Virus record (IMG/VR): IMGVR_UViG_3300037785_000059
Location: 1 to 60,957 of that record
Length of the DNA: 60,957 bases
From: a virus
Lineage: Duplodnaviria; Caudoviricetes
Strand: one strand, 5' to 3'
Below, piece by piece: positions 1,241 through 60,957 of this stretch (position 1 is the stretch's first letter; each line of letters opens with the position of its first letter). A program made the position numbers and the translations under genes. Below the pieces are notes generated by a model. It worked only from the letters and a program-made list of their open reading frames with translations, did not search any database and had not been told where the DNA came from.

Positions 1241-1414
1241 CAGACCAATAGACCCCAACGTGGGCTAGACGCCAAGGCCTCGCGGACGCCCGGCACCATG
1301 CCGGGCGTCGAAAACCCTATACCCCGGACCGCGGACCGCGCAACACCTTCCAAAATACCCCCACATCCGATACCCTCCGCGGCACAACCACACGCCGCCA
1401 AAGGGGCACGGACC

Positions 1415-3040
1415 ATGGCCATCGACGCAAACGACCCGCGCAGAGGCAGCTTTGCGACAGGCTCCTCGCGCCAAACCGCCGACGCCGCCAAATCCAGCGC
1501 CAGCAAAGCACGCGCCTCGTCCCCCTCGATCAGCCGATCCACCCCAACGCGCAGCAAAAGCCCCTCCGCCAGCTCGACCGCGGCCCGCGGGGCCAGCAGC
1601 TTCGGCGGAAACAAATCCTTCGGGGACCGGGACGACGACGACCGCAACCGCGTCAGCAAACCGTCCGGCGAACAGCAGGCGCGGAAAACGCGCACCGGCT
1701 TCCCCTCCGGCAAGGCCGACGGCGGCCGCGACAGCCGACCTTCCATCGTCCCCGGCCCCAAGCAAACCTTCGCCCAACAGCCCAGCCTCGGATCCTTCCG
1801 GCCCACGCCCCGGCCGACACCACAGGCCGCCCAGCCAACCGCACAAACCTTCCGACCCACCCCCAGACCACGGACCGTGGCCCCCGTCGCAGGGCAGACG
1901 CTCGACGCGCCACGGACCGCGGAACCCGTCGCACAAAGATACCTCGACGGACCGCGGACCTCGACGCCCATCGCCGAGCGCTACATGACGCCGGAACAGG
2001 AGGCCCTGGCCGACGCGTTCTTCGCCCGCCTCGGACAGGCCGGGCCCATCGGGCAAGCGCCGGTGCAACAACTGGACCGCGCGACCGCCAACGCCGTCAT
2101 GGAAGACTTCGCCGCCCTTGAAGACCGCGTCGATATGGAGCCCCAGTTCGTCAACAACCCGCTGCGACAGCTCGGCTACCTCGATGCAGGCGGACTGCGC
2201 GGCATCGACTTCATGCCCCTAGACCCAAACAGCGCGACCTACTACGGCAGCGGATACACCCCCGCTTACTACGACGCAGAAGTGCTGGCCGCCATGGACA
2301 GCGGGGACAACCTGCTTCCCATCTTTGATTCCGTCGCAATGATAAACCCCGCGCGGGCCGACGCCTTCACAGACGCATACTTCAGGGGACAAGACGCATA
2401 CCTCCTCCCCCCGCGGACCGTGGCCCTCGGGGCAAACTACATGACAGAGGGGGCCAAAGCCCACGAAGCCGGACACCGCGGCTTCGATGTCATCGAAGAA
2501 CTCTTGCAGGGAAACCCAGAGCTGCGCTCGCGGTTCTATCGCGGCTTCCCCATGAGCGAAGGCCTGCCGCCCCAGCGTTATTCGCGCGGATACGACACCC
2601 GTCTCGAAGGCCTCGTGCCGCTGTCTAACCGAAACATCTACACACAGGACCAAGCCTCTGCGTTTGAAGAAAACGTAGTCGAGCGCGGCGACGACCCCTC
2701 AGCCACGTGGATCCAGCCGCGGACCGCGGATCAGCCCGTAGGAACCTACGCAACCATGGAACCGACGATCCAATACATGCGGGGCGTCGGCACCGAGCAA
2801 TATGCGCCCACCCCGATAGGGTCAGAACGAATGCGGCGCTATGACCAAATCATGCAGGAAATCGCCGCAGAAGAGCTGGCCCGACGCGGCGTGCCGCCCC
2901 GCGCGACCATGCAGGGCGACCCCGAGCAGGCTCTGAGCGTGATGCAGGGCATCACAGACCGCGCGGACCAAGCCCGTCCAGAAGAACGCAACAGAGGCCT
3001 CCTCGGCGGCATCGGGGCCCTGATCCGCGGGATCTTCTGA
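1415..3040 (+). CDS. Putative virion-internal protein with disordered N-terminus and HExxH zinc-peptidase-like motif
   Basis: ATG 1415 after AAGGGG; N-terminus nearly identical to 13009 protein; KAHEAGHRG at 2462-2476. Confidence 0.75.
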   Translation: MAIDANDPRRGSFATGSSRQTADAAKSSASKARASSPSISRSTPTRSKSPSASSTAARGASSFGGNKSFGDRDDDDRNRVSKPSGEQQARKTRTGFPSGKADGGRDSRPSIVPGPKQTFAQQPSLGSFRPTPRPTPQAAQPTAQTFRPTPRPRTVAPVAGQTLDAPRTAEPVAQRYLDGPRTSTPIAERYMTPEQEALADAFFARLGQAGPIGQAPVQQLDRATANAVMEDFAALEDRVDMEPQFVNNPLRQLGYLDAGGLRGIDFMPLDPNSATYYGSGYTPAYYDAEVLAAMDSGDNLLPIFDSVAMINPARADAFTDAYFRGQDAYLLPPRTVALGANYMTEGAKAHEAGHRGFDVIEELLQGNPELRSRFYRGFPMSEGLPPQRYSRGYDTRLEGLVPLSNRNIYTQDQASAFEENVVERGDDPSATWIQPRTADQPVGTYATMEPTIQYMRGVGTEQYAPTPIGSERMRRYDQIMQEIAAEELARRGVPPRATMQGDPEQALSVMQGITDRADQARPEERNRGLLGGIGALIRGIF

Positions 3041-3049
3041 AGGAACTAA

Positions 3050-3434
3050 CCAGAGCGGCCGACACCGGGGGACAACCCCCGGTGGCCCTGGGATCAGGGT
3101 CTTAAATTGGCTGTCTTTCCAGCCTGTCAGCCCGTAGACGACACGGTGCCGGTCACTCGAAACCGGGCGAGGATGGTTTCCCACTGTCGCTCGGCCCTAC
3201 CGCGTGCCCGCTTAATGCTGCGAGCGCCGCGCTCTGAGGGTGTGCTCGTGGTGCCAAGACCGTTTTCGCCTATCAGGCTAGGTCTATGCATCTTCACTGT
3301 CAGCACACCGCCAGAAAGCGGTCGCGCCAGCGCACAGAATGTGGCGCATTCGGTAACGCGAAGACCAAAACTGCGAAAACCGTGACAGTCTTTTCGAGTG
3401 TTGATGTTGCGGCGTGCGCTGGCACAGACCGTTC
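3050..3434 (-). ncRNA. Candidate large structured non-coding RNA
   Basis: No credible ORF; many nested inverted repeats, GAAA loop, TTCGAGT loop, GGCTG-GAAAGA-CAGCC hairpin; upstream TTGACC-N16-TAGAAC on - strand. Confidence 0.6.
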
Positions 3435-3491
3435 TAAAGGATGGAGCACGGGGGTCAAGACGTTGACCGCGGCCCGCGGGCCTATTATGTC
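3431..3491. promoter_or_regulatory. Back-to-back sigma70-type promoters
   Basis: GGTCAA (3453-3458; TTGACC on -) and TTGACC (3463-3468) with plausible -10 boxes 16-17 bp away. Confidence 0.5.
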
Positions 3492-3519
3492 TCTTATACG
3501 TTTAAGTATAGGAGGCCCC

Positions 3520-4302
3520 ATGAACATCTATGACCACAACGGATGCGTCGCCATCCCCGTCGGCGTCACACAAGAATGGCTCGACGCCCTCGACCGCGAA
3601 GGCATCGAGAAAAATCTCCAGAAGATCCTCATCGAAAAGGCCGAGCACCTCGGAGAACAGGAAAAAGCACGCCAGAGGCTCGAATCCGCCCAAGAGGCCC
3701 GCGAAAACCGCCAAGACAGCATCCTGCGCTCGCTCACCGAGGCCGAGATCAACGAAGCCGCCCTCTTGGTCCTCGATCACACCAAAGGCGTCCTAAAGAC
3801 CGCTTTGCGCCTCCAAGCGCTCATCGACAAACACATCGAAAACCCCGAAGACGGAAGCAAACGCGGCAACGTCAACACCGTCCTCGATTACGTCCGGGCC
3901 CATATCAATATGCTCGAAGGCGTGAGCCTCTCCAAAAAACCCCTCCAAGACCTGCGATACATCCGAACCGCCAAAGCCGCCAACGCCTGCGGCATCTCCC
4001 ACAAAAACCTCTCGATGATCTGGAAATGCCTCATCTCCATCCACAAAAGCGGCACCGCCCTGCCCATCGGACAAGAGGCAAAGCTCGCCGACCTCGCCGC
4101 CACCATGCAGCTCCAAGCCGACTATGACAGGGAAGCCGAAAAAGAGGCCGAAGCCTCGCTCGGACCCCGCGACAAAGAAAGACGACGCCGCGCGGCCCAC
4201 GCAGAAGCCCGACGGGCCATGTTCCCAGACCTGTCCCTCTATCCCGGCGATGAACCTATAAGTTCAAAATACCGGAGATCGAGGGAATTTGAGGCCGAAT
4301 GA
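3520..4302 (+). CDS. Hypothetical helical protein
   Basis: ATG 3520 after AGGAGG; strong C/A codon bias. Confidence 0.75.
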   Translation: MNIYDHNGCVAIPVGVTQEWLDALDREGIEKNLQKILIEKAEHLGEQEKARQRLESAQEARENRQDSILRSLTEAEINEAALLVLDHTKGVLKTALRLQALIDKHIENPEDGSKRGNVNTVLDYVRAHINMLEGVSLSKKPLQDLRYIRTAKAANACGISHKNLSMIWKCLISIHKSGTALPIGQEAKLADLAATMQLQADYDREAEKEAEASLGPRDKERRRRAAHAEARRAMFPDLSLYPGDEPISSKYRRSREFEAE

Positions 4303-4499
4303 CGGGGCGTATATTTTTAGGTGCAAAGGCGGGATTGCGGGGGCCGGGGCAGATGTCGCGGACCGCGGACCGCGGGACGGGGTAGAAAATATCCCGTAAA
4401 ACCAAGGCATTGTCCGGATAATCGGGGAAGGGCTGGCGAAAAATCTTGCGCGGATCGGGGACAGGAGGTAGGTTCTTCCTGTCCCCAAACGACGGGGAC

Positions 4500-4995
4500 G
4501 CGGCGAAAAAGGTTACATAGTTACGAATTTCTAGGGTAAAAATGTAACCGTAAATTGCCGGTAAGTGGTTGAAAGCATTGGGGAAAATTGTCGAGTTACA
4601 TAAGTGACGGTGTTTTTAGGGCGGGGCGCGGATCGCGGATCGCGGATCGCGGGGCCAAAAACAGGGCTACTTATGTAACCGAAGGCCGAAGGGCCAATGA
4701 AATAAGGGCGAAACCGGCGTCAACCGGTAACGAATAGACCCTAGAAATATGTAACCGTGTAACCGTCCCAGGCGAGGAGCCTGCGGGCGGATTTTGCGTT
4801 TGATCTGGTCTTGACAAGGGCCCGAAGTCCTTAATTGGCCAGATGTGTTAAGGGGGGGAGAGATGGTTTTTTATTTTTTTTGATTTTTGCTCTATATACT
4901 AATAGGGGAAAATAAGAGAATGGGGTTGACAAGATGAGGCGGCGAAGGCCCAGCCTCTTGACCCCTGCCCGGCCTGCCTGCTAAATGTAACGAGA
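4500..4995. other. Putative replication origin or packaging-initiation region
   Basis: AT-rich, non-coding, with about 8 ATGTAACCG/GTTAC repeats in both orientations and a T-run near 4867-4888. Confidence 0.5.
4958..4987 (+). promoter_or_regulatory. Promoter for terS
   Basis: TTGACC-N16-GCTAAAT, alphaproteobacterial RpoD-like. Confidence 0.55.
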
Positions 4996-5014
4996 ATTAA
5001 CATCGGAGCAGAGC

Positions 5015-5659
5015 ATGACAGGCAATCGCTATCTGGTCGCTCAAGAAGAGCGGAAGAACGTCCGACGCAAGGCGAAGGACTACGCCCCCGAAGACAAGCC
5101 CCTGAAGCGCCGCGAAGAGCTGTTCGTCCGGGAGCTGGTCTCGAAGGATGGTCAGATCACGATGCGCGAGGCGGCGATCAATGCCGGATTCCCGCCTCGC
5201 TCGGCGCACGCCCGCGCGCACGAGATGACCAATCCTGCAATCAGCCCCCACATTGTGAAGGCGATCAAAGCCTACCGGGCGGAGCTCGATGCGAAATATG
5301 GCGTCGAATATCACCGGCACCTGCGCGACCTGCAGAGGATCCGCGACATGGCCCTAGAGGCTGGCGCGTTCTCGGCCGCCGTTCAGGCGGAGTATCGGCG
5401 CGGGCAGGCGCATGGCGACATCTACGTCCAGAAAAGCGAAGTCCGGCACGGCACCATCGAGTCGATGAGCAAAGACGAGGTGCTGAAGGCGATTAAGGAG
5501 CTGAAGCAGCAGTATGAGCCAGTCACCATTGACGTCACGCCCGAAGAAAACGCAAACCGCGGCAACCGGCAAAAAGCGCGAGAGCGCCTTCTGGCGGGTG
5601 GTTCTGAGGGCGATGGAGAAATCGAAGAGGGCGAAATCCTGGACGGCCACGAGGATTGA
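5015..5659 (+). CDS. terS: Terminase small subunit
   Basis: N-terminal HTH (EELFVRELV...EAAINAGF) plus SAAVQAEYRRGQAHG oligomerisation motif typical of TerS. Confidence 0.8.
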   Translation: MTGNRYLVAQEERKNVRRKAKDYAPEDKPLKRREELFVRELVSKDGQITMREAAINAGFPPRSAHARAHEMTNPAISPHIVKAIKAYRAELDAKYGVEYHRHLRDLQRIRDMALEAGAFSAAVQAEYRRGQAHGDIYVQKSEVRHGTIESMSKDEVLKAIKELKQQYEPVTIDVTPEENANRGNRQKARERLLAGGSEGDGEIEEGEILDGHED

Positions 5660-6765: not shown

Positions 6766-7407
6766 ATGCTCACCATCACTGTTGATTTTCTGAAAGCCGC
6801 CCTGCTCTTCGCCTCGAATGAGCAGACCCGGTATTACCTCTGCGGCGTGCACCTCCTGCGCCGCGGAGACCACCTCCGCATCTGCGCGACCGACGGTCAC
6901 CGGCTTTTCGTCGCGTCCGAGATCCTTTCCGGGCCCGGCCCGGACTTCGATGTCATCCTGCCCCGCGATGCGTTGAAAAAGGCCCTGACCGGCTTGGGCC
7001 GCGGCGTGTCGCACCTGCCCCTGGTTCTGGAAACCGGCGAGCGCGCGGGCCGCGACCAGGTCCTGCGCGCGACGCTGGGCGACGTCCAAATGACGCCCGT
7101 GGATGGATCGTTTCCGGACATTACCCGCGTCATCCCGAAAGCCGACGCGATCACCGGCGAGACGGCCGACTTCAACCCGATGTATCTCGCCGACATTGGC
7201 AAGGCGGCAAAGATCCTCGGATCCGGCGTCACGGATTTTCACCTTGGGCACAATGGCGACGCGCCCGCCCTCATCACGTTCGGTCAGAAAACCGCGTTTG
7301 CGGCCCTGATGCCGCTGCGCCCGCGGGTGGAGCCCATGCGCGCTTATGAGGTGGCGGCAATCATGGGCAGTGACGCGCCCGCGCTGGCGGATCAAAACGC
7401 GGCTTGA
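6766..7407 (+). CDS. Truncated DNA polymerase III beta-clamp-like protein
   Basis: ASNEQTRYYLCGV...ATDGHRL...GSFPDITRVIP...FNPMYL...ALMPLR match DnaN domains 2-3; only 213 aa. Confidence 0.8.
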   Translation: MLTITVDFLKAALLFASNEQTRYYLCGVHLLRRGDHLRICATDGHRLFVASEILSGPGPDFDVILPRDALKKALTGLGRGVSHLPLVLETGERAGRDQVLRATLGDVQMTPVDGSFPDITRVIPKADAITGETADFNPMYLADIGKAAKILGSGVTDFHLGHNGDAPALITFGQKTAFAALMPLRPRVEPMRAYEVAAIMGSDAPALADQNAA

Positions 7408-7476
7408 CGCGTCAAGGTCAAACGGTCTAACAAGGGGGCGGGCAATCCCGCCCCCTTTGCTTTGGAGATCCCCGAG

Positions 7477-7992
7477 ATGAAAATTTATGTCGCTTGCCTC
7501 GCCGCTTATAACGCCGGACGCCTTCACGGCGAATGGATCGACGCCACGTCCGACGCCGCCGAGATGGGCGAGGCGGTCGCCGCTATGCTCGCAAAGTCGC
7601 CCGTGCCCGGTGCGGAAGAATATGCGATTCATGATTATGACGGTTTTCCGGATATGGGCGAGTATCCGGGCCTTGACGCTATCGCCGAGACCGCGGGCTT
7701 AGTGGAGCTCGCCGCGGAGCATGACCTGAGCCCCGCGGCGTTCAAGGCGATTGCCGACAATTGGCACGGCGGCGCCCGCGACATCCGCGAGGCGTTCGGG
7801 CGGTGGGTCGGGCTGTTCGACTCTTTCCGCGAGTATGCCGACGAAATCGCGGATCTTTACATTGGCGAGACGTCCGGCGCGGCGGCCGACTATGTTTCGC
7901 AATATTTCGACTTTGAGTATCACGCCAGCGACCTTGCCCTTTCTTACACCGTTATCGAGACGCCCGACGGGGTCGCGGTTTTTTATGATTGA
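7477..7992 (+). CDS. ardA: Antirestriction protein ArdA
   Basis: KIYVACLAAYNAGRLHGEWID, EEYAIHDYDGF and YFDFE motifs; acidic. Confidence 0.9.
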   Translation: MKIYVACLAAYNAGRLHGEWIDATSDAAEMGEAVAAMLAKSPVPGAEEYAIHDYDGFPDMGEYPGLDAIAETAGLVELAAEHDLSPAAFKAIADNWHGGARDIREAFGRWVGLFDSFREYADEIADLYIGETSGAAADYVSQYFDFEYHASDLALSYTVIETPDGVAVFYD

Positions 7993-8062
7993 CGCGTCAA
8001 GGTCAAACGCGCTAGGCAGGGGGCGGGCACTCCCGCCCCCTTTACTGTTTGGAGATTCTGAC

Positions 8063-8326: not shown

Positions 8327-8472
8327 TCCGGCCCCGCGCCCGCCAGCGCGCCCGCCAGGCGCGCCGCGACGCGGCGGCCGACGTGGTGGCGATTGCCGCC
8401 ATGATCGCGTTTACATATGGGGGGCTGCTGCTGGCCTTCGCGCTCGACGCGGGGGTGACAGCTGGACCTTGA
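8323..8472 (+). CDS. 49-aa basic/transmembrane peptide (MIRPRARQRARQARRDAAADVVAIAAMIAF...)
   Basis: ATGA-coupled; its TGA is the TTGA of the next -35; not in ORF track. Confidence 0.6.
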   Translation: MIRPRARQRARQARRDAAADVVAIAAMIAFTYGGLLLAFALDAGVTAGP

Positions 8473-8541
8473 CGCGGCCGCGGCCGTGACGATAGACAGG
8501 GGGCGGGCAATCCCGCCCCCTTTGCTTTGGAGAATCTCGAG

Positions 8542-8724: not shown

Positions 8725-8927
8725 CCGGCCCTGACTTCCGCCTTTCCTTCGATTGTCCCGATTGCGGTAAGCAATGGGGAGAAACGGCCCGAGTGCGGCG
8801 TGACGGCGAGTGTCCGCGGTGCGGCACGGTTTCGCGCTATACGCGGGCCCGCGCCCTAGCGCCCTGGCCCTGGCCTACCTCGCGCGCGCCCGAACGCCCC
8901 TATCCCCCGCCGCGCGTTTGGGATTGA
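8721..8927 (+). CDS. Zinc-ribbon protein
   Basis: CPDCG...CPRCG; ATGA-coupled; stop fused to next -35. Confidence 0.65.
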   Translation: MTGPDFRLSFDCPDCGKQWGETARVRRDGECPRCGTVSRYTRARALAPWPWPTSRAPERPYPPPRVWD

Positions 8928-8997
8928 CGCGGCCGCGGCCGCTATGTCATGAAGGGCGCGGGCGCAATCCCGCGCCCTTTGCTTTGGGAGGCCTTCC

Positions 8998-9370: not shown

Positions 9371-9454
9371 CGTTTGGGATTGACGCGCCGCTAGGTGCGG
9401 CGCTATTAACGGGGCGGGCGCAATCCCGCGTCCCTACCGTTTGGAGCTTTACGC

Positions 9455-10484: not shown

Positions 10485-12938
10485 ATGTCTATGCTGAACG
10501 AAGACCCGCAGGAGCGCCTGTTGAAGTTGGAGCTTCGGCTTGCGCAGCTTCAGATGAAGGAGAAGGTGCAGCAGGAATTCCTGCCGTTTGTGAAGCATGT
10601 CTGGCCTGAGTTCATTGCGGGGGAGCATCACCGGATCATTGCGGAGAAGTTGGAGCGTGTGGCGCGTGGTGATTTGAAGCGTTTGATCATCAACATGCCC
10701 CCGCGTCATCGACTGGCGTTGGACACGCCTGTTTTGACTGTGGCGGGTTGGAAGACGATAGGGACGGTCGAGGTCGGCGATTTTGTCTATGGCTCGGACG
10801 GTCTTCCGCAGCGCGTGGTGGGGAAGTCGGATGTGTACGAGGAGCCTCTGTACGAGGTGCGTACGGACGAGGGCGAGGTCTTTGTCACGGATGCGGAGCA
10901 TCGGTGGAAGGCGGTTCGGTCTGTGCGCGAGATGGTTGGCGGCGTCCGCGGCACGCGAACCGAGGAGGTTGTGGTGTCCACGCGGGACATTGCGGACTGT
11001 GTTCTGCGCGCGGACCGTGCGACGCGGCTCGTGGACCGTGCTGCGGTTCATCGGGAGGCTGTGGAGTTGCCTGTGGACCCGTATGTTTTGGGGGTCTGGT
11101 TGGGGGACGGGCACAAGGGTCAGGGGATTATTTCGAGCCCGGACGAGGACGCGGCGTTCCTTCGTGCGGAGCTTGAGCGGCGCGGGTATCGGACCACGGA
11201 TCAGGCAACGTCGATGACTTTTGGCGTGTTGGGGTTGAAGGTTCTGTTGCGGGATGCGTTGGGCGTTTTGGGGGACAAGCGCATTCCGGAAGAGTATCTT
11301 CTGGGGTCTGTCGAGCAGCGGCGAGCTTTGCTGCACGGTTTGATGGACACGGACGGGAACGTGATGGCGTCTGGGCAGTGTGTGTTTTCGCAGAGCGATT
11401 CGGGGCTCATTGAGTCGTTCCGGCGGCTGCTGTGGTCTTTGGGTATCAAGAACACAGTGATTTCGTATGTGCCTAAGCTGAACGGGGTTGAGCACAAGCG
11501 GGCGTACAAGGTGCATTTTTACGACGCCGATGCGGCGACGTTGCCGCGCAAGCGGGCGCGGTGCCGTGCGCCGAAGGGGTTTGGGTCGCGGATTTATGCC
11601 ACGGCGGAGCCTTTGGGGGTGTCGGGTCGTGTGCAGTGCATTCAGGTTGCGAACGCGGATCAGGTGTTTTTGGTGGGGCGGAGCTTGACCCCGACGATGA
11701 ATACCAAGAGCGAATTTGCATCTTTCCTGTTCCCGGCGTGGTTTATGGGCAAGTTCCCGAACAAGAAGATCATCCAGGCGACGCATACGACGGAGTTGGC
11801 GGTTGGTTTTGGTCGAAAAACGAAGAATTTGATCGAGCGGGATGATTACAAGGACGTGTTTGACGTCAAGTTGGCGGCGGACAGTAAGGCGTCTGGCCGG
11901 TGGGACACGGACCGTGGCGGGATGTATTACGCTGTTGGTGTGGGGTCGAACTTGGCGGGTCGTGGTGGTGATTTGATTATCATTGACGACCCTCATTCGG
12001 AGCAGACGTTGATGTCTGCGAATGGGTTTGACGATGCGTGGGATTGGTACACGGGGGGTCCGCGTCAGCGTTTGCAGCCGGGTGGTGCGATTGTTGTGGT
12101 TATGACGCGGTGGCATGAGAAGGATTTGACGGGACAGTTGATCCGTGCGCAGGCCCGTGATCCGTTGGCCGATCAGTGGGAGGTTGTGGAGCTTCCTGCG
12201 ATCATGCCGAGTGGGAACTCCTGTTGGCCGGAGTATTGGTCTTTGGAGGATATGGTGCGTGTTCGTGCGTCGATTCCTTCTGGCAAGTGGAATGCGCAGT
12301 ATCAGCAGAACCCGACGGGTGATGAGAACTCGATTTTGCGTCGGGATTGGTGGCAGATTTGGGAGAAGGGGAAGGTTCCGCCATTGGAGTATGTGATTCA
12401 GAGCTATGACACGGCGTTCTCGAAGCGGGAGACGGCGGATTATTCGGCGATCACGACGTGGGGTGTCTTTCGGCAGGATGAGGGTGGTCCGCCGTCGTTG
12501 ATGTTGTTGGATGCGAAGAAGGGTCGGTGGGATTTTCCGGAGCTCAAGCGTGAGGCGTGGTCTTTGTATCAGTTTTGGGAGCCTGAGACGGTGATCATTG
12601 AGGCGAAGGCGACGGGGATGCCGTTGACGCATGAGTTGCGGAACATGGGGATTCCTGTGGTGAATTTTACGCCGAGTCGGGGCAACGACAAGGTGAGCCG
12701 GGCGCACAGTATTGCTCCGTTGTTTGAGGCTGGGATGATTTGGGCTCCTGATGAGCAGTGGGCGCATGAGTTGATTGAGGAGTGTGCGGCGTTTCCGAAC
12801 GGGGAGTATGATGACTATGTGGACAGCACGACGCAGGCGTTGATGCGGTATCGTCAAGGCAATTTTGTGCAGTTGCCGACGGATGACTGGGATGAGGAGG
12901 AGGAGCGCAGCCCGCGGATTCGGGCGTATTATGGGTAG
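10485..12938 (+). CDS. terL: Terminase large subunit (intein-containing)
   Basis: INMPPRH|TKSE Walker A, LIIIDDPH Walker B, SYDTA and DDYVDSTTQA nuclease motifs. Confidence 0.95.
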   Translation: MSMLNEDPQERLLKLELRLAQLQMKEKVQQEFLPFVKHVWPEFIAGEHHRIIAEKLERVARGDLKRLIINMPPRHRLALDTPVLTVAGWKTIGTVEVGDFVYGSDGLPQRVVGKSDVYEEPLYEVRTDEGEVFVTDAEHRWKAVRSVREMVGGVRGTRTEEVVVSTRDIADCVLRADRATRLVDRAAVHREAVELPVDPYVLGVWLGDGHKGQGIISSPDEDAAFLRAELERRGYRTTDQATSMTFGVLGLKVLLRDALGVLGDKRIPEEYLLGSVEQRRALLHGLMDTDGNVMASGQCVFSQSDSGLIESFRRLLWSLGIKNTVISYVPKLNGVEHKRAYKVHFYDADAATLPRKRARCRAPKGFGSRIYATAEPLGVSGRVQCIQVANADQVFLVGRSLTPTMNTKSEFASFLFPAWFMGKFPNKKIIQATHTTELAVGFGRKTKNLIERDDYKDVFDVKLAADSKASGRWDTDRGGMYYAVGVGSNLAGRGGDLIIIDDPHSEQTLMSANGFDDAWDWYTGGPRQRLQPGGAIVVVMTRWHEKDLTGQLIRAQARDPLADQWEVVELPAIMPSGNSCWPEYWSLEDMVRVRASIPSGKWNAQYQQNPTGDENSILRRDWWQIWEKGKVPPLEYVIQSYDTAFSKRETADYSAITTWGVFRQDEGGPPSLMLLDAKKGRWDFPELKREAWSLYQFWEPETVIIEAKATGMPLTHELRNMGIPVVNFTPSRGNDKVSRAHSIAPLFEAGMIWAPDEQWAHELIEECAAFPNGEYDDYVDSTTQALMRYRQGNFVQLPTDDWDEEEERSPRIRAYYG
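10710..11702 (+). mobile_element. Class 3 intein with LAGLIDADG homing endonuclease (331 aa)
   Basis: Begins RLALDTP, DAEHRW (block B Trp), VQCIQV (block F Cys), PTMN|T end; LGVWLGDG and LHGLMDTDG. Confidence 0.9.
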
Positions 12939-30574: not shown

Positions 30575-30917
30575 TCTTTCCGCGAAGATCGCCCCGTCTG
30601 GTGTGGGCTACATCAACATCCCGCCTGCGGGCACGAAGACCTCCAGCTACACGCTGACCAAGGACGATGTCGGTCATTACGTGCAGATCGGCACGGGTGG
30701 TTCGATCACGATCCCCGACTCTGTCTTCGCTGAGGGGGATGCGGTCAGCCTCTTCAACAACACGACGGGGGATGTGACCATTACCTGCTCGATCACCACC
30801 GCCTACCTTGCGGGGGAGGACACCGACAAGGCCAGCGTGGTCCTCGCAACGCGGGGCGTGGCCAACGTTCTGTTCATCAGCGGCACTGTTGCGGTTATCA
30901 CGGGGAACGTCAGCTAA
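30567..30917 (+). CDS. Small tail protein
   Basis: SYTLTKDDVG...ITIP...F.EGD.V domain typical of fiber tips. Confidence 0.65.
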   Translation: MANLSAKIAPSGVGYINIPPAGTKTSSYTLTKDDVGHYVQIGTGGSITIPDSVFAEGDAVSLFNNTTGDVTITCSITTAYLAGEDTDKASVVLATRGVANVLFISGTVAVITGNVS

Positions 30918-32054: not shown

Positions 32055-32843
32055 ATGCTCGGATTCTCCCCTCTTGCGAGCGCGCCCCTAGCGGACGACG
32101 CGGGGGAGATCAGCCCGAACGTCACGGTTTTTGCGACGGGCGTTGCGGCCACGGGGCAGGTCGGCAGCGTCACGGTTGCGACGACGGCGTCGGTGGATGT
32201 TGCGGCCACGGGCGTTGCGGCCACTGGGGCTGTGGGCAACGTCACCATCGTCACGGCAGACGGCGTCTCCATTCTTGTCACGGGCGTTGCGGCCACTGGG
32301 GCTGTCGGCAGCGTCACTGTCGCGGTCGTCGCCAATATCAACGCGCCGGTCACGGGCGTTGCGGCCACGGGGCAGGTCGGTACGGTAGAGGCGAGCGCCG
32401 GCGCGACGACGGCGGTTACGGGCGTTGCGGCCACTGGGGCTGTCGGCAGCGTCGCGGTCTTGGCGGGCGAGCGGGTTATCCCGACGGGCGTAGAGGCGAC
32501 GGGTGCTGTCGGCACCGTCACGATTTCTGGCACGGCGACGACGGCGGTTACGGGCGTGGCCGCCACGGGTGCTGTCGGCACCGTCACGATTGAGTTCAGC
32601 CAAGATGTCTTCGTTACGGGCGTTGCGGCGACGGCGGAGCTGGGGTCGGTCGAGATTACCGGCGGCATCACGGTTCTGGTCACTGGCGTTGTGGCCACGG
32701 GTGCGGCGGGCTTTGCCTCGGTTTGGGGCCGTGTTGTCCCTGACGCGCCGAGCATTTGGACAACGGTGGACCCGTCCGCGACTGGTATCTGGACGACGGT
32801 TGATCCCGATCCGGGGCAGGTGTGGGTCCGCACGGCGGCGTAG
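32055..32843 (+). CDS. Repeat-rich virion fiber protein
   Basis: MLGFSPLASAPLA start; about 10 TGVAATGxVG repeats. Confidence 0.75.
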   Translation: MLGFSPLASAPLADDAGEISPNVTVFATGVAATGQVGSVTVATTASVDVAATGVAATGAVGNVTIVTADGVSILVTGVAATGAVGSVTVAVVANINAPVTGVAATGQVGTVEASAGATTAVTGVAATGAVGSVAVLAGERVIPTGVEATGAVGTVTISGTATTAVTGVAATGAVGTVTIEFSQDVFVTGVAATAELGSVEITGGITVLVTGVVATGAAGFASVWGRVVPDAPSIWTTVDPSATGIWTTVDPDPGQVWVRTAA

Positions 32844-34384: not shown

Positions 34385-36246
34385 TGCCTCTGACGGGTCT
34401 CCAGTTCCGGCCGGGAATCAACCGCGAAACGACGTCCTACACCAACGAAGGCGGGTGGCAGGATTGCGACAAGGTGCGCTTCCGCGCGGGTTTCCCGGAG
34501 ACTATCGGCGGCTGGGAGCCCTATACGGGTACGCCAGTTTTGGGCGTGTGCCGCAATCTCCACACCTGGACGACCCTGTCGAACGAAAACTTCGTGGCCG
34601 TGGGCACGCATCTCAAGCACTACCTCGCCAGCGGCGGCGCGCTGTTCGACATCACCCCGATCCGCGAATCGACGGCCGATGGCGCGGTGACGGTCAGCGC
34701 AACGGACGGGTCCACCACCCTGACGGTGTCGGACACGGCACATGGCGCGCTTCTGGGGGACTTCGTGACGTTCCGAAACGCTGTTTCGCTGGGCGGAACC
34801 GTGACGGCGGCTGTCTTGAACGCCGAGCACCAGATCACGCAGATTGTGGACGCAGACACGTATGAGGTCGAGCTGGCGGTCGCTGCCAACGCCTCGGACA
34901 CGGGGAACGGCGGCGCTCTGATGGCGGCCGATTATCAGGTCAACACCGGCCTTTCGGACGCCGCCTTTGGCGACGGCTGGGGCGCAGGCCCGTGGGGCGA
35001 CGGCGGCTGGGGCTCGCCGGCGGATACGTCGGTGCCGGGCGCGCAGCTCCGTCTGTGGGCCGCCGACAATTACGGGGAAGACCTCCTGTTCTGTGTCCGC
35101 AACGGCGGCATCTACTACTGGGACGCTTCTTCGGGGACCGCGGCCCGCGGCGTAGCGATATCGGACCTTCCGGGCGCAAATTTGGCTCCGACGGTGGCCC
35201 GCGTTGTGCTGACGTCCGACCGGGACCGCCATGCTCTGGCGTTTGGGTGTGACGACGAGCTGTCTCCTGGGCAGCAGGATCCTCTGCTGATCCGCTTTTC
35301 CAACCAGGAGAGCGTGACGGATTGGGAGACCCGCGCGGACAACACCGCGGGCAGCCTTCGGATCAGCTCGGGCAGCGGCATCGTCACGGCGGTCAAGACG
35401 CGCCAGCAGGTCGTGGTGTTCACCGACGTTTCCTTGCACGCGCTGCAGTACATCGGACCGCCGTTCACGTTTGGTCTGACGGAGATCTCGGTCAACGTGA
35501 CGATTGCCGGCCCGCAGGCCGCGGCGGCCGTCAACGACCTTGTCTTCTGGATGGGCGAGGGGGACTTCTTCGTCTACGACGGCCGGGTGCGCAAGCTGCC
35601 CTGTTCGGTCAAAGAGTATGTCTTCAACCGGCTGGACATCAGCCAATCTCAGAAGATCACGGCGGCGCACAACCCGGAGTTTTCGGAGGTGTGGTGGTTC
35701 TACCAGTCCTCGGAGGGCAGCGAGAACGACAGCTACGTTGTCTACAACTACGAACAGAACCTCTGGTACTACGGCACACTGTCCCGGACAGCGTGGCAGC
35801 AGCGCGGCATCTTTGGCTACAGCATTGGCGCGGCCCCTGACGGGTATCTGTATTATCACGAGATCGGCATTCGGGACGGGAGCACGAGCCCCGCGCAGGC
35901 GCTTAATGCGTATATTGAGTCGAGCCCGGTCAACATCGGCGAGGGCGACCAGTTCATGTTTGCGGACAGGATCATTCCGGACATCACGTTCCGGAATTCG
36001 CCGGGCAGCCCGACGGTGACGATGACGCTGCGGGCACGGAATTACCCTGGCGACGGGTATTTGACAAAGGAAGAGGACAACCCTGTGACGCGGACGGCGA
36101 CGCTGCCGGTCGAAAAGTTCACGCGGGACATCGACGTGCGCTTGCGCGGACGGGCGGTGTCCTTGCGCGTGGAATCGGATGACCGCGACACGTCTTGGCG
36201 TCTGGGCACGCCGCGCCTGCGCGTTCGGACGGACGGGCGGAGGTAA
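34384..36246 (+). CDS. Tail nozzle / stabilization protein (P22 gp10-like)
   Basis: RPGINRE, DKVRFRAG, IRFSNQE, FWMG, EVWWFY, YVVYNY, WRLG...DGRR. Confidence 0.75.
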   Translation: MPLTGLQFRPGINRETTSYTNEGGWQDCDKVRFRAGFPETIGGWEPYTGTPVLGVCRNLHTWTTLSNENFVAVGTHLKHYLASGGALFDITPIRESTADGAVTVSATDGSTTLTVSDTAHGALLGDFVTFRNAVSLGGTVTAAVLNAEHQITQIVDADTYEVELAVAANASDTGNGGALMAADYQVNTGLSDAAFGDGWGAGPWGDGGWGSPADTSVPGAQLRLWAADNYGEDLLFCVRNGGIYYWDASSGTAARGVAISDLPGANLAPTVARVVLTSDRDRHALAFGCDDELSPGQQDPLLIRFSNQESVTDWETRADNTAGSLRISSGSGIVTAVKTRQQVVVFTDVSLHALQYIGPPFTFGLTEISVNVTIAGPQAAAAVNDLVFWMGEGDFFVYDGRVRKLPCSVKEYVFNRLDISQSQKITAAHNPEFSEVWWFYQSSEGSENDSYVVYNYEQNLWYYGTLSRTAWQQRGIFGYSIGAAPDGYLYYHEIGIRDGSTSPAQALNAYIESSPVNIGEGDQFMFADRIIPDITFRNSPGSPTVTMTLRARNYPGDGYLTKEEDNPVTRTATLPVEKFTRDIDVRLRGRAVSLRVESDDRDTSWRLGTPRLRVRTDGRR

Positions 36247-45200: not shown

Positions 45201-45539
45201 GCACAAGAAGAGATCGAGGACACGCGGTTCCGTGTTCCGCTGGTCGGCGCAGCCAACGCCGCCACCCCGAATGCGGCCTTGGAGGAATATCTCCAGAGCG
45301 TGCAGCAGCCTGCTCCTGCCCAGCCCGCGACACCGGCCGCCAGTCCCCGGCCGACGAACGCGACACCGGCGGTGGGAGCACCCCCGCCTGCGGTTCCGCG
45401 AGCCGCTCCAGCCGCGCCGCGGGCGGGGGGCCAAGGTGCGAGCTATTCGGCTCTGTTCCCGAACGATCCCATCTCGCCGATGCTCCAGCAGCGCGAGCTG
45501 CAGCAGGGGATCGGAGCGCTGATGCCGGGCCCGCGCTAA
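42261..45539 (+). CDS. Large internal/ejection protein
   Basis: 1092 aa, last structural gene; ends YSALFPNDPIS...GIGAL. Confidence 0.7.
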   Translation: MTDISTNPPVGPTVAAAESLRPLRIDYDVNAALEAGLTAADIAEYLASEMDYDIAGAREAGVTNDQIIGELSTARAPSRTGAVAEGTLRGAIVGGGALAGAATGAVAGAPLGPVGSLAGGTLGTIAGLFAGTQAEQGLEDLGALPTGQVVPGRRPFLEAGRTFGGGASFLAAPALAVRGIPLSTTRFLENQATRRGLEASRLGPFDQLLRSYQQRPGLFVAGETGALGASSVAGGLSEASDPGNAYLRMGAEILGGMANPVGILSRFAAPAADSIRSSLRGLTPEGRASRLGRRLVEILENAGEDPEAVITALRRDDDIAELAAEMGVDLGPRTAALRSGSPTLTTLQRTIAAQNSETLGPTVARAAEQNLEGISRLISLMSQMEDPAVLATAAQMRDAYFREAIQMRLDQASAQAAETAGRLVTDDPLAGQRAGEVVASIVGDALQDARAQERALYQAVDLTQPGVADNIIGTVAEIRANLLPESPFPSLITRFVRRVSGEDAEEGLEEAAEVTLRDLVNFRSEMLSMTRDARAQGNFRDANFYGRMAEAALEDIGLRAGDGLDANQQALQNAYAFSRSLNDVFTRSFAGDVGATRRTGANRIPPELLANRIFGSGGDATSLRIADLEEAAQFMAQQAGPEFAEVSQQRLGTLRDAEQTILRVAAERTLNPETGQVNPAALSRFMQRNAATLERFPQLRSDLENAVTAQQRLRSVIEETSLEARNLDNNRVFSALLGAEETPGGAVGLAIGTPGEGRRPDAVRNLNQLVRLANTAGDIAPQARAGLRDAVLDRAVVYATSPEGNFSFNRFRNFLLEPISRSQPSVAGVLRDGGIFTDAEVTQLNRLLREADRVQEAMDAGGPQLDEVVIDAPAAVFDLVTRIAGSAVGTGVSRAAERVIPGYTRGSGQGLIEAQAGSRLTRNLFENMPQTYFKDMLNEAISNPQVMEALLRRGVNESPRARRVVDRRINAFLIDAGLQPAQEEIEDTRFRVPLVGAANAATPNAALEEYLQSVQQPAPAQPATPAASPRPTNATPAVGAPPPAVPRAAPAAPRAGGQGASYSALFPNDPISPMLQQRELQQGIGALMPGPR

Positions 45540-47983
45540 TCGAGCCACGCGCGGGCCTGCTCGCCCAAGACTTGGCTGGCGATGTTGATCTTGTCCCGCA
45601 GGGCCTTGATGATCTTCTCGTCAATCGTCTTGGGCGACACGAGGTCGATGTAAGTCACGTTTGACGTTTGCCCGATCCGGTGTGCGCGGTCCTCGGACTG
45701 CAGACGCACCTCAAGGTCGTACGAATTGGAGTAGTAGATCATCGTCTTGGCCTGCGTCAGGGTCAGACCATAGGCCCCTGTCTTGTTGGAGATGAAGAAG
45801 CGCAGGGGGTGGTCCGGGTTTTGGAAATCGCGGACCGCGGCCCGCCGGTCTTCGTCCGGCGTTGCGCCGTAGTAGGGTGCCGCCGATTCTGGGCCGAATC
45901 GGCGGCGCAGGGCTTCGGTGATCGTTTCGATGTCGTGTGTCCACGTTGCCCAGATGATCACCTTGCCCTGAGTCTCGTCTACGATGTCGAGCAGTTCATC
46001 GAGACGTTTGTTCTTGAGGGGGACGACGTCGCCCTCGTCGGTTGTGAAGAAGCCGCAGCAGATCTGGTGCAGGCGCATGAGCTGCGTGAGGACGGATTGC
46101 GTAGTGGCCAGCTCGCCGCTTTCGAGCTGGGCGAGGGCCAGCTCTTTCATCTGCTTGTAGGCTTTGATCTGTTCGTCGGTCAGGGCGACATCGCGTCGGA
46201 CGTAGATCTTGTCGGGCAGATCGAGGCAGTCCTCTTTGAGGATGCGGGTGCTGAATTTTTCGAGCTTCTCGTTGAGCTCGTCAAGGCGGCGGTATCCAAC
46301 GATCTCCTGGAACGATTTGTGGCCCATGGTCCGTTGCTGCAGGACGGCGTAGCGGCTCTGGTAGGCAAAGTAGGAGGAGAAGCCGAGGCACTTCTCGGCG
46401 AGGAAGTCGCATTGGGAGAAGAGGTCCATCGGGCTTTTGGTGATGGGCGAGCCTGTCAGGATGCGGGTGTATTTGGCGGCGCGGCCGACTTTGACGACGT
46501 TCTTGGTGCGCTTGGCTTGCCGGTTCTTGATGGTCGTGCTTTCGTCTACGGCGACGAGGCAGTTGGGGTTGTGCTTGACGAAGGCGAGGGCGGTGTCGGC
46601 CCCTTTGGGCGTGGACAGGGCCTCGATGTTCATCACGAAGATCCGGAGGCGCTTGTCCCGGCGCTCGTGCGGCAGGGCGAACTCGCGGAGGGTTTCGCGG
46701 AAGCGTTGAGTGATGTTGGGCTGCCAGCGCAGCACTTGGTGTGGAATGCGGTCGGGCAAGTGGACCGGGATTTCGCTCGTGACCCAGTTGTCGAACACGC
46801 CTTTGGGTGCGAGGATCAGAGCGGCGTCGATGCGGCCCGCCTCGTAGAGCGCGCCCATGGTATCAATGGTTATTTTGGTCTTGCCGGTGTTCCCTGTAAC
46901 GAACACGCACCCGTTCCTGCGCAAAACGAGGTAGGTGGAAGGCACTCGGAAACAGTACATGTGTCCGTCGGGTGCCGGTATTTTTTCGGCGCGCGGCTGG
47001 ATGCACACTAGGTTAGACGTCCTACCGGTGCCCACGGCGTGAACCCGCCACGTCCCGTCTCCGCCGGAGCGGACGGAGCTTCGCTTCCCGGTGGAAGCCA
47101 AACAGAACTGAATAAAGTCCGCGTCCTCCTTATGGATCGAAGAATACACTCGCATGTCGCTGTTTTTGGGGGAATCCCAACGAAACACTTCGTCCAGAAT
47201 AACGAGCTTCTGAGCTTCCGTGGCCTGCCACCACATAGCGCCAAACGTCTTTGACACGCACGGCGGCAAAAAGATGACTCGGACAAATTCGTCTTTCGCG
47301 GACCGGACCTCATAGGGGATGTTTGCGCGCTCCAAGAGCATCTGGATACGTTCTATCTTTCTTGTGCGCTTAACCCGAACTGTTCCTTTTCGCTTGGCCC
47401 CCACGCCGCTCAGGTCCCGCGTGTGGAACGTCCCGTCCGCATGAAACGCGACCTGCACGCGGATCTGGTCATCAGACAATGGTATGCCGGGGCCGTGGCA
47501 GCCGCGAAAGACCGGCCAAACGTGCGACATTTTTTTGCCCCGTTCCACGAACCTCTTGGGGGTCGTTTCAAACCATGCGGTGCTTCGCTGGTTGATCTGC
47601 ACGTCGTCCGGGCCTTGCCCGACCCGATCATACAGGTCGCCCAGTTTCGATTTGCGTGTGATGTCCGAGCGCAAAACCAACATGCGATGGTCTTCGCTCA
47701 AGACCTGGTCCAGACCGCGAGCGGAGGTAAAGTGGTACATTTCCTCGCACGGCTTGCGCACGTATTCCAAGGGTTCTACGAATTCTGCGCGTCCATCCAG
47801 CGTGAACTGCGCCACAGGCCCGCCCACGTAGTCGGCAATTCGAACCCACCCTGTGGGGGACAAATACTCGGTGTCGGCATCAACGCACCCCATCTCACAG
47901 AACAGGGCCCAGAATTTCTTGTCCCACGAGGCCGACCACGCGTCGCGCTGGTGGGCATAGGGCGTTGTTTTTGGCTCATACAT
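45536..47983 (-). CDS. SNF2-family helicase (intein-containing)
   Basis: EMG|TGKT, VDESTTIKN, LTGSP, GLTLT, QSEDRAHRIGQ. Confidence 0.92.
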   Translation of the reverse strand: MYEPKTTPYAHQRDAWSASWDKKFWALFCEMGCVDADTEYLSPTGWVRIADYVGGPVAQFTLDGRAEFVEPLEYVRKPCEEMYHFTSARGLDQVLSEDHRMLVLRSDITRKSKLGDLYDRVGQGPDDVQINQRSTAWFETTPKRFVERGKKMSHVWPVFRGCHGPGIPLSDDQIRVQVAFHADGTFHTRDLSGVGAKRKGTVRVKRTRKIERIQMLLERANIPYEVRSAKDEFVRVIFLPPCVSKTFGAMWWQATEAQKLVILDEVFRWDSPKNSDMRVYSSIHKEDADFIQFCLASTGKRSSVRSGGDGTWRVHAVGTGRTSNLVCIQPRAEKIPAPDGHMYCFRVPSTYLVLRRNGCVFVTGNTGKTKITIDTMGALYEAGRIDAALILAPKGVFDNWVTSEIPVHLPDRIPHQVLRWQPNITQRFRETLREFALPHERRDKRLRIFVMNIEALSTPKGADTALAFVKHNPNCLVAVDESTTIKNRQAKRTKNVVKVGRAAKYTRILTGSPITKSPMDLFSQCDFLAEKCLGFSSYFAYQSRYAVLQQRTMGHKSFQEIVGYRRLDELNEKLEKFSTRILKEDCLDLPDKIYVRRDVALTDEQIKAYKQMKELALAQLESGELATTQSVLTQLMRLHQICCGFFTTDEGDVVPLKNKRLDELLDIVDETQGKVIIWATWTHDIETITEALRRRFGPESAAPYYGATPDEDRRAAVRDFQNPDHPLRFFISNKTGAYGLTLTQAKTMIYYSNSYDLEVRLQSEDRAHRIGQTSNVTYIDLVSPKTIDEKIIKALRDKINIASQVLGEQARAWLD
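46889..47887 (-). mobile_element. Class 1 intein (333 aa) with degenerate LAGLIDADG domain
   Basis: CVDADTEYL start, SEDHRM block B, MYCFRVP...FVTGN|T end; AFHADG. Confidence 0.9.
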
Positions 47984-59942: not shown

Positions 59943-60437
59943 ATGACCCAAGACGAACTTAAAAAAATCCTTTCCGACCACAAAGCATGGTTGAAGAACA
60001 AAGGCGGAAAGTGGGCCAACCTGATCGGTGCCGACCTGAGCGGTGCCGACCTGAGCGGTGCCGACCTGCGCCGGGCCTACCTGCGCCGTGCCCACCTGAG
60101 CGGTGCCGACCTGCGCGGTGCCGACCTGCGCGGTGCCAACCTGCGCGGTGCCAACCTGAGCAATGCCGACCTGCGCGGTGCCCACCTGCGCGGTGCCGAC
60201 CTGAGCGGCGCTGGTATCATTGACTGCGGCCAGCGCAGTGACGGTTATCAGTTCTTTATTCACGTCACAGCAAAAGACCAGCCGATGTTGATCGCAGGAT
60301 GTCGCTATTTCACGCTGTCAGAAGCTCGAAAACATTGGGACAAAACCCGCCCCACAGGCCAGCGCCTCGGGGACGAAAGCCGCGCAATGCTGGATCATGG
60401 AGAGAGAATGCTTTCGATAGCGGAGGTCACACAATGA
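59943..60437 (+). CDS. Pentapeptide repeat protein
   Basis: About 13 A(D/N/H/Y)L(S/R)G repeats, HKAWL N-cap, AGCRYFTL C-domain. Confidence 0.9.
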
Positions 60438-60670
60438 CCGGCCCCACCGACGGCAACCTTGACGCCCTGCGCCGCTGCGAAGAGGAGCGCGAGGAATACG
60501 AGGCGCGGTTCATCGATTGCCCCGAGTGCAACGGCACGGGCGAAATCGAGGTGCCGCTGGGCTTTCACACCGGCAACCCGGAGACTGACGATTGGGACGT
60601 GGCCGACTGCGAAGAGTGCGGCGGCACGGGCAAGATTGAAGCGGAGGAAGACGATGCGCTTTACGACTGA
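60434..60670 (+). CDS. DnaJ-type zinc-finger protein, copy 2
   Basis: CPECNGTG and CEECGGTG; paralog of 57044-57268. Confidence 0.75.
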
Positions 60671-60755
60671 CGACATTCTCGGCGGCATCTGCATTGCCGT
60701 CATGATCTTCGGCCTGCCGTGGGTCGCGGCAATCGCCCAGGCGGTGATGCAATGA
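60654..60755 (+). CDS. Small single-TM peptide
   Basis: [23 protein letters not shown]. Confidence 0.5.
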   Translation: MRFTTDDILGGICIAVMIFGLPWVAAIAQAVMQ

Positions 60756-60867
60756 CCTGCTGCACATTTGACTGCCGACAAGGCCGAGACTGCCCGAACC
60801 GCATCAAGCGGGCGCTGTGGCCTGCGATCAAAGAAACGCTGGCACGGCTGGCGAAGGAAGGTGTGAA

Positions 60868-60957
60868 ATGACGCGACTAAGAGCACTGAAGAAACTGGCC
60901 GAAAAGGTGGAGGCGGGAGAATGGGGGCAAAACGCAGCGTGGAAAATTTTTGGGATA
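60868..60957 (+). CDS. Partial hypothetical protein
   Basis: ALKKLAEKVEAG, runs off window end. Confidence 0.5.
   Translation, partial: MTRLRALKKLAEKVEAGEWGQNAAWKIFGI

Follow-up and report, generated by a model that had tools for sequence, protein, structure and literature searches.

A probable new family of structured phage RNAs, promoter-proximal in most carriers and stand-alone in one complete virus record

The complete IMG/VR virus record IMGVR_UViG_3300037785_000059 (Caudoviricetes; 60,957 bases, CheckV completeness 100%), which was analyzed at full length and is referred to here as the window, encodes among other proteins a small terminase (5015-5659), a large terminase, a portal, a primase, a helicase and a DNA polymerase. 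At about 61% identity, the large terminase resembles those of the Pelagibacter phages HTVC027P and HTVC023P. Between an open reading frame (ORF) of 580 amino acids (1298-3040, plus strand, with its stop at 3040) and a plus-strand gene for a 260-amino-acid helix-turn-helix (HTH)-like protein lies an intergenic gap of 479 nucleotides (nt) at 3041-3519, in which a first-pass annotation made from the letters alone had noticed a candidate non-coding RNA with its own promoter. This RNA element and its relatives probably represent, as judged by sequence comparison, a real new family of phage RNAs that forms a promoter-proximal leader in most of the phages carrying it and stands alone in the window. 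There, the element lies on the minus strand, opposite to both neighbors, divergent from the 260-amino-acid gene and convergent with the 580-amino-acid gene.

The window element consists of a promoter-like site, a conserved core (D1), two optional parts (D2 and D3) and a 3′ module (Table 1). In D1, helix P1 (3423-3414/3335-3326; 10-12 base pairs (bp) among the copies) closes an arm A, made up of P2′, P2 and the variable hairpin P3, and an arm B, which is a small P4 hairpin with the loop CGCCA. This layout was seen in all 10 copies when the arms were folded separately, and in most of them when folded as whole molecules. All of the stems listed in the first-pass annotation do occur in the sequence, so that the observation as a whole is confirmed: P1 is perfect over 10 bp in the window (11 bp by script when G-U pairs are allowed), stem 3239-3246/3302-3309 is the inner stem of the 95-nt hairpin D2, and the three D3 hairpins as well as the two terminal hairpins T1 and T2 are present in both the minimum free energy (MFE) and centroid folds. 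Two of its details were not borne out. The proposed extension of P1 by GCGGTC/GACCGT runs into the -10 region and is conserved in no relative, and in place of the proposed GTC-TACG-GGC hairpin the MFE fold pairs CCGTG with TACGG. The candidate ‘ornate’ RNA that had been described is not one fixed fold but a core of about 100 nt with a 3′ module and optional inserts, and most of the stems first noticed fall in the optional D2 and D3.

Table 1. Coordinates of the RNA element and other features in the window
Feature	Position	Strand	Description
Promoter-like site	3431..3458	-	-35 TTGACC 3458-3453, 16-nt spacer, -10 TAGAAC 3436-3431, 7 nt to 3423
D1, conserved core, three-way junction of about 100 nt	3326..3423	-	R1 scores; folds of all 10 copies including L002
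D2, optional long hairpin	3227..3321	-	Conserved outer strands, covarying inner stem 3309-3302/3246-3239, variable apex
D3, optional multi-hairpin block	3108..3231	-	TGG-GAAA-CCA, CCGGT..ACCGG, GGCTG-GAAAGA-CAGCC
3′ module	3063..3106	-	TTTAAGA, hairpin T1 (3099-3086), one base, hairpin T2 (3084-3063)
Divergent promoter-like site for the 260-amino-acid HTH-like gene (candidate)	3463..3488	+	From sequence; spans palindrome CCGCGGCCCGCGG; back to back with the -35 box of the RNA
TTGACGCG-type cassettes	7404-7461, 7989-8046, 8469-8526, 8924-8990, 9405-9446		Repeat families D5, D6, D15

Ten related copies of the element were found, all in uncultivated phage contigs. Pattern scans of viral contigs identified nine of them (L082, L083, L089, L093, L095, L098, L100, L101 and L102). 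A covariance model of the D1 core (R1) scores nine copies at 84-118 bits and adds a weak match at L002:1324-1426 on the minus strand, with 19.1 bits and an expectation value (E) of 0.0027 within 4 kb or 0.43 within 642 kb. Over 41 sources plus 49 further loci, R1 gave only this weak L002 match, with none in the 49 loci. L002 is the closest relative of the window by large terminase (91%), and its copy agrees with that of the window in relative location and strand; the helices differ between the two, and the junction stretch is identical in 19 of 22 positions. The metagenome number in the contig names is identical for six of the related contigs (L002, L093, L095 and L100-L102). Eight chance pattern matches were rejected on reading (L087, a hairpin in a Moritella metagenome-assembled genome; L088/L091; L090; L092; L094; L096; L097; L099).

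Conservation is limited to the part presumed to be transcribed, as similarity to the relatives spans 3423 to about 3060 within otherwise unrelated flanks. Parts of the stretch also occur in 20 of the 22 listed sequencing runs, with no RNA data set listed among those containing it, which is uninformative about expression, and contigs of four public runs were compared with the window over 2600-4400, using as evidence only positions with contig cover. In these contigs, similarity ends near 3424, and 3094-3231 is nearly free of differences, versus about 10% difference at the end of the 580-amino-acid gene. Run contigs X2 and X6 have five other letters in place of 3232-3321, and one run contig joins 3107 almost directly to 3326.

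Outside these contigs the element was not found. Two pattern scans of metagenome contigs produced no true copy, and neither blastn nor nhmmer detected one in 80 loci related by large terminase. No match to the window region or the L101 version was obtained by blastn in 50,697 phage records, nor was there any in 72,556 plasmids. The 703 bacterial genomes sampled in total, comprising 401 of one phylum (BLAST) and 151 + 151 of two orders that are possibly not those of the hosts (R1), did not contain the element either. A 22-nt exact match in G197 and G085 was rejected as coding sequence (GETILARL). An alphaproteobacterial host, first read from a Caulobacter promoter consensus, was unsupported, and no host is proposed here; large terminases of the L098 type share 52-56% identity with those of phages of several phyla.

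The 5′ edge of the element is marked by a -35-like box. The distance from this box to the first base of P1 is 29 nt in the window (TTGACC) and in L082, L089 and L098 (TTGACG), 30 nt in L093/L095 (TTGACA), 28 nt in L100-L102 (TTGATA) and 32 nt in L002 (TTGCAG), and the five upstream contexts are mutually unrelated in sequence between box and core. This is the spacing expected of a -35 box if transcription starts at the first P1 base. Downstream of D1, the copies differ by whole domains. The architecture of D2 recurs in six instances (the window, L098 twice, L100, L101 and L102) and is absent from run contigs X2/X6 and from L082, L089, L093 and L095. D3 matches L082 with 99% identity over 104 nt and L083 with 98% over 99 nt, with different flanks, is present as a partial copy in L089, and is missing from L093, L095 and L100-L102. 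The 3′ module is conserved in the window, L083, L093, L095 and L098 with varying T1 loops, and L100-L102 have a different 3′ part of about 220 nt, with a final strong hairpin located just before the ribosome-binding site of the next gene. Whole elements range from 143 nt in L093, which has only D1 and the 3′ module, to 543 nt in L098.

Pairing is kept through sequence change in P1, P2, P3, P4, the D2 stem and T2. For P1 there are three versions that differ in sequence, each of 10-12 bp, with one G-U variant in L102. The third pair of P4 is A-U in six copies and C-G in three, and P4 is 7 bp long in L002. The P3 hairpin varies in sequence, with loops UCCG, UCUG or GAAA, and the inner stem of D2 differs among the window, both L098 instances and L100-L102 while pairing in 6/6 instances. 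One T2 pair is G-C, G-U or A-U across copies, and the GNRA loop of D3 changes from GAAA in the window to GCAA in L089. For counting, we used an alignment of nine sequences and 21 pairs (A2), leaving out A3, which has two reverse-strand rows, and a MAFFT alignment with L002 (A4), in which the 5′ half is misplaced. In A2, 98.9% of cells pair, versus 21-41% with the partners slid, two of the 21 pairs change on both sides (both in P1), and the covariation score of 0.111, compared with 0.056 shuffled, was reached in one of 500 shuffles.

Folding of the 430-nt region gives -192.8 kcal/mol on the minus strand (z = -4.50) and -190.8 kcal/mol on the plus strand (z = -3.93), with none of 100 dinucleotide shuffles as good in either case. 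Across the family, all seven whole elements have the more negative z-score on the sense strand, and the L002 copy folds to -35.7 kcal/mol in sense versus -23.1 in antisense. Comparison with Rfam 15 gave no match at gathering score anywhere in the window, with GOLLD, ROOL, riboswitches, C4, tmRNA and 6S included in the models. At E up to 10, region 2900-3650 has only chance matches (E 7.6 and 9.8), to snoR30 with 13.9 bits (cut-off 60) and to sR14 with 9.5 bits (cut-off 38), and the elements of L100, L102 and L098 have none at E up to 1. ARAGORN calls neither a tRNA nor a tmRNA in the element, which the first-pass annotation had likewise held not to be a tRNA and could not assign to a family. 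P1 resembles the closing repeat of the retron type; no reverse transcriptase domain was detected among the proteins scanned, which were those of the nearest genes. The proposal of a candidate non-coding RNA is supported in its size, strand, own putative promoter and absence from known families. In L102, an int-alpA RNA (RF02996; 36.0 bits, cut-off 35.8) was found at 3457-3521 on the minus strand, 2.7 kb from the element.

A co-oriented ORF follows the element within about 15-175 nt in nine of ten relatives with downstream sequence, and neighboring genes in the relatives are co-oriented with the strand of the element. The first following ORF encodes a small terminase in L100 and L083 and an HNH protein in L098, L101 and L102, and it is a small ORF in L002, L089, L093 and L095. 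Genes for HNH and/or small terminase, large terminase and portal lie downstream in L083, L098, L100, L101 and L102, while L093/L095 have a 78-amino-acid ORF and a RusA-like gene. Upstream in L082, L089, L098 and L101 is a double winged-helix regulator (matching HTH_24, MarR_2 and FaeA, E from 7e-10), then a protein of 64-78 amino acids that has no family match, both co-oriented with the element. In L093/L095, a homologue of this regulator (E 2e-8) ends at the -35 box, and six contigs overall have it upstream. In L093, L095, L101 and L102, the next start codon is only about 15-20 nt past the last hairpin, which leaves no room for a second promoter, so that in these contigs the element would have to be the 5′ leader of the next gene. 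The leader arrangement is looser in L002, L083, L089, L098 and L100. In L002, the D1-like domain is followed by a long hairpin (1259-1323, minus strand) whose 3′ strand holds AAGGA just before an ATG, which opens a 61-amino-acid ORF with a hydrophobic N-terminus; this layout looks like a translational switch.

The window has no co-oriented gene downstream of its element, is thus not in leader position, and encodes no homologue of either of the two upstream proteins of the relatives. The same convergent layout occurs next to a homologue of the 580-amino-acid gene in run contig X3 record 8. The window shares other segments with L089, L093 and L095 at 74-95% amino-acid identity, which shows that the carrier phages exchange modules. 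The record ends (60434-60957 and 103-361) have about 74-95% protein identity to parts of L089 and L093, a mosaic exchange with carriers of the element, and the pentapeptide-repeat protein at 59943-60437 (Pfam E 4e-27), which has a 15-nt tandem repeat, is 74% identical to an L095 gene.

We consider it likely that the window element is a real structured RNA of the minus strand. The complete explanation, in which a non-coding RNA gene of about 360 nt (3423 to about 3063, minus strand) belongs to a non-Rfam family that is a leader elsewhere and a free RNA here, is somewhat more open to doubt, and we favor it on balance. Transcription and the 3′ end are inferred, as is the mechanism in all its steps, the latter from position and conservation. 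In the proposed unit, a sigma-70-type promoter would be followed by D1 at or next to position +1 and by zero to several hairpin inserts, with the conserved twin-hairpin 3′ module closing the unit in some members. Once made, D1 would fold and could serve as a platform for RNA polymerase, a phage protein or a small ligand, and would thereby decide whether transcription or translation passes the downstream hairpins into the following genes, often the packaging operon. A role in cis as leader is suggested because the unit often heads co-oriented HNH, small terminase, large terminase and portal genes, with the winged-helix regulator often upstream; we put forward this function for the family only tentatively and regard it as open to considerable doubt. 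The window unit faces the 3′ end of a convergent gene. Its product would be a free RNA of about 360 nt that ends at the twin hairpins, and this copy may either act in trans or be a recent, still intact transfer. A further and more speculative idea, which we rate as improbable, is that D1 represents a new portable class of promoter-coupled regulatory RNA, put-like or sensing a ligand or protein, that times the packaging operon. Unrelated phages would then swap D1 and tolerate insertions of whole domains, and the window copy would be a derivative that stands alone, for instance acting as a decoy for the factor concerned.

Several observations weigh against these interpretations. The family is small (10 copies), and its effective sequence number in R1 is 1.25. 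The L002 score of 19.1 bits is about that of reverse-strand matches to true copies (20.2-20.3 bits). Six copies were retrieved using the P1 sequence itself as the search pattern, and P1 identity among them is therefore by construction. In A2, 16 of the 21 pairs are invariant, the number of doubly changed pairs (two) was reached in 226 of 500 shuffles, and the sequences are too few and too similar for an R-scape-type significance test. When D1 is taken by itself, six of 10 copies have the lower raw MFE on the antisense strand. One D3 stem has by eye an A-C mismatch on the sense strand and G-U on the other, and RNAalifold gives a partly different inner pairing. Recent transfer, and not selection, could explain why D3 is nearly identical across phages. 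The TTGACC-N16-TAGAAC site of the first-pass annotation is present, but a strict scan for E. coli-type promoters over 2800-3800 calls none, and the -10 hexamers of the family are weak (TAGAAC, TAACTT, TAAATT, CAACAA, GAAACA and TAGAAA, with only the A at position 2 in common). No canonical intrinsic terminator was predicted inside 3041-3519 on either strand; neither terminal hairpin has a T run after it, with TCGGCC following T2 on the RNA strand. Finally, the leader model fails to explain why the window copy is retained, as there is nothing downstream to regulate.

One rival explanation is an RNA that acts in trans, a ‘moron’ with its own promoter that would pair with host or phage RNAs or serve as a decoy for RNAs or proteins, its position upstream of genes being incidental. 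The window unit is self-contained, opposite in strand to both neighbors and without a downstream gene, and its convergent layout is repeated in the run contig noted above. The unit also moves between unrelated phage backbones, and its unpaired stretches are conserved. However, the start codons about 15-20 nt past the last hairpin in L093/L095 and L101/L102 force a 5′-leader role there, and no complementary target beyond chance was found in the window: the complement of a junction 12-mer has its own site and one site with a single mismatch (equaled in two of 100 shuffles), and that of a 13-mer has its own site only. As an account of the family, we hold a purely trans-acting RNA to be unlikely.

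Alternatively, the inverted repeats could matter as DNA, for instance as operators, as a site of replication or packaging, or as a hot spot of recombination. The folds of both strands are better than those of shuffles, isolated D1 has the lower MFE in antisense in six of 10 copies, and the contigs of L082 and L083 break inside the element. It adjoins HTH regulator genes, and its place ahead of the small terminase gene in several phages is one at which cos sites are expected. Yet the helices change while still pairing through G-U intermediates, which is strand-specific, the L002 copy folds far better in sense, and the -35 box at a fixed distance marks the 5′ edge. In addition, the element is found away from packaging genes in L093/L095 and the window. 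We rate a DNA-level function as quite improbable.

Slightly less probable still is a riboswitch-like reading, in which D1 would be a ligand-binding aptamer at the head of a 5′ leader and the hairpins after it would form the expression platform. The three-way junction, in which junction and loop bases are conserved while the helices vary, and its location at the 5′ end of operon leaders would suit an aptamer, as would the L002 hairpin with AAGGA just before the ATG in its 3′ strand. Against this, no Rfam riboswitch matches, the class of the downstream gene is inconsistent, variable inserts separate D1 from the genes in elements of such different total length, and the window copy has nothing to switch. 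The remaining option, a small protein, is hardly credible: a minus-strand 59-amino-acid ORF (3306-3127), a minus-strand 75-amino-acid ORF (3527-3300) and a plus-strand 92-amino-acid ORF (3107-3385) do exist, with weak matches to DUF3693 (E 0.062) and phrog_5807 (E 0.016) and a peptide-like D3 stretch common to the window and L089, but no match reaches a curated cut-off, the window and L089 differ in 10 of 25 codons of the 59-amino-acid ORF with one change synonymous (by eye), this ORF starts inside D2, a part missing from other copies, the 75-amino-acid ORF begins upstream of the promoter, where it runs over the start of the neighboring gene, and D1 copies differ by indels of 1-2 nt, all of which makes coding unlikely.

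Of the two genes flanking the gap, the 580-amino-acid ORF has no family match in scans of the window proteins, and 13 of 20 hand-checked run-contig differences fall at third codon positions of its frame. The 260-amino-acid HTH-like gene starts at ATG 3520 and not at the first ATG of its ORF (3286), because four homologues begin at the same methionine (alignment A1), and an AGGAGG box precedes this ATG. These four, all on contigs of at most 1.6 kb, are its only homologues, and neither flanking protein has relatives in the viral contig set. Ahead of this gene, the window at 3453-3482 reads GGTCAA gacg TTGACC, two -35-like boxes back to back, then the palindrome CCGCGGCCCGCGG, which occurs once in the window. 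CCGCGG-rich motifs resembling it recur in the window and several times in L002. From its sequence, the 3463-3488 site is a candidate promoter or operator, and the palindrome is a possible operator for the neighboring HTH-like protein.

Elsewhere in the window, the large terminase gene (10485-12938; 817 amino acids) looks as if it holds an intein with a homing endonuclease, as 80 relatives match only about 57% of the sequence, in two pieces, and a LAGLIDADG_3 domain is found at amino acids 277-325. Immediately ahead of the small terminase gene, a non-coding stretch (4846-4931) is 87% identical to L002:3381-3465, in the same place, and the surrounding 4300-5000 has low G+C and a strong positive GC skew over about 700 nt; it may be a packaging site or a second RNA. 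Successive small genes are preceded by a repeated cassette of a TTGACGCG-type promoter-like box, a G+C-rich hairpin and a ribosome-binding site (Table 1). A plus-strand ORF in the tail-fiber region contains nine tandem copies of 66 or 72 nt at 32120-32726 (repeat families D2 and D3, which are unrelated in naming to the RNA domains), with a distant tenth copy at 30833. Unlike nearly all other large genes, an SNF2-family helicase gene (45536-47983) is on the minus strand. The sole ARAGORN call in the window is a tRNA-Pro(GGG) at 34971-35067 that is unusually long (97 nt) and located inside long ORFs of both strands; it may be a false call or an insert-bearing tRNA.

The timing of late (packaging) genes is little known in most uncultivated aquatic phages, for which a folded RNA between a regulator gene and the HNH/terminase operon, exchanged among phage backbones, is a concrete candidate control element. 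The family also gains and loses whole domains at a single junction, which makes it useful for studying how larger RNAs are built. If it is only a stabilizing 5′ structure or a relic, it would be one more ordinary entry among the thousands of phage RNA motifs already predicted. A 2023 study (PMC10690425) describes 8495 candidate structured RNAs from IMG/VR, 29-151 nt long in its DNAVirus_N set, some of them upstream of terminase genes. By this description, these are objects of the same kind from the same data source, and the catalogue may already contain pieces (D1 or D2) of the element; its pipeline, as described there, would not join the parts into one 360-nt unit. A literature search found no description of the element.

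The first-pass annotation had pointed to GOLLD and ROOL, the large ornate phage RNAs. Like them, the element is phage-borne and multi-hairpin, but the comparison did not hold: no GOLLD or ROOL model matches at E up to 10, the family is far smaller at 143-543 nt, it gains and loses whole domains, and no tested defining feature is in common. Closer parallels may lie in phage antitermination. In lambdoid phages, the late operon is headed by a leader, the PR′-tR′ ‘6S’ transcript, with antitermination by Q. As in that system, a short promoter-proximal transcript that ends in hairpins would lie between a regulator and the late or packaging genes (L083, L098 and L100-L102). In contrast to it, the conserved part of the element is a folded three-way junction, the hairpins are without a T run, the window copy leads no genes, and no Q homologue is among the proteins scanned near the element. 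The put RNAs of phage HK022 are cis-acting antiterminators that modify RNA polymerase, and we know of no put model in the Rfam library searched. Put RNAs resemble the element as proposed here in being structured RNAs right after a promoter that head different operons and are followed by hairpins, and differ from it in having two stem-loops where D1 is a three-way junction of about 100 nt. By analogy with these systems, the element would work most like the lambdoid late leaders or the HK022 put RNAs.

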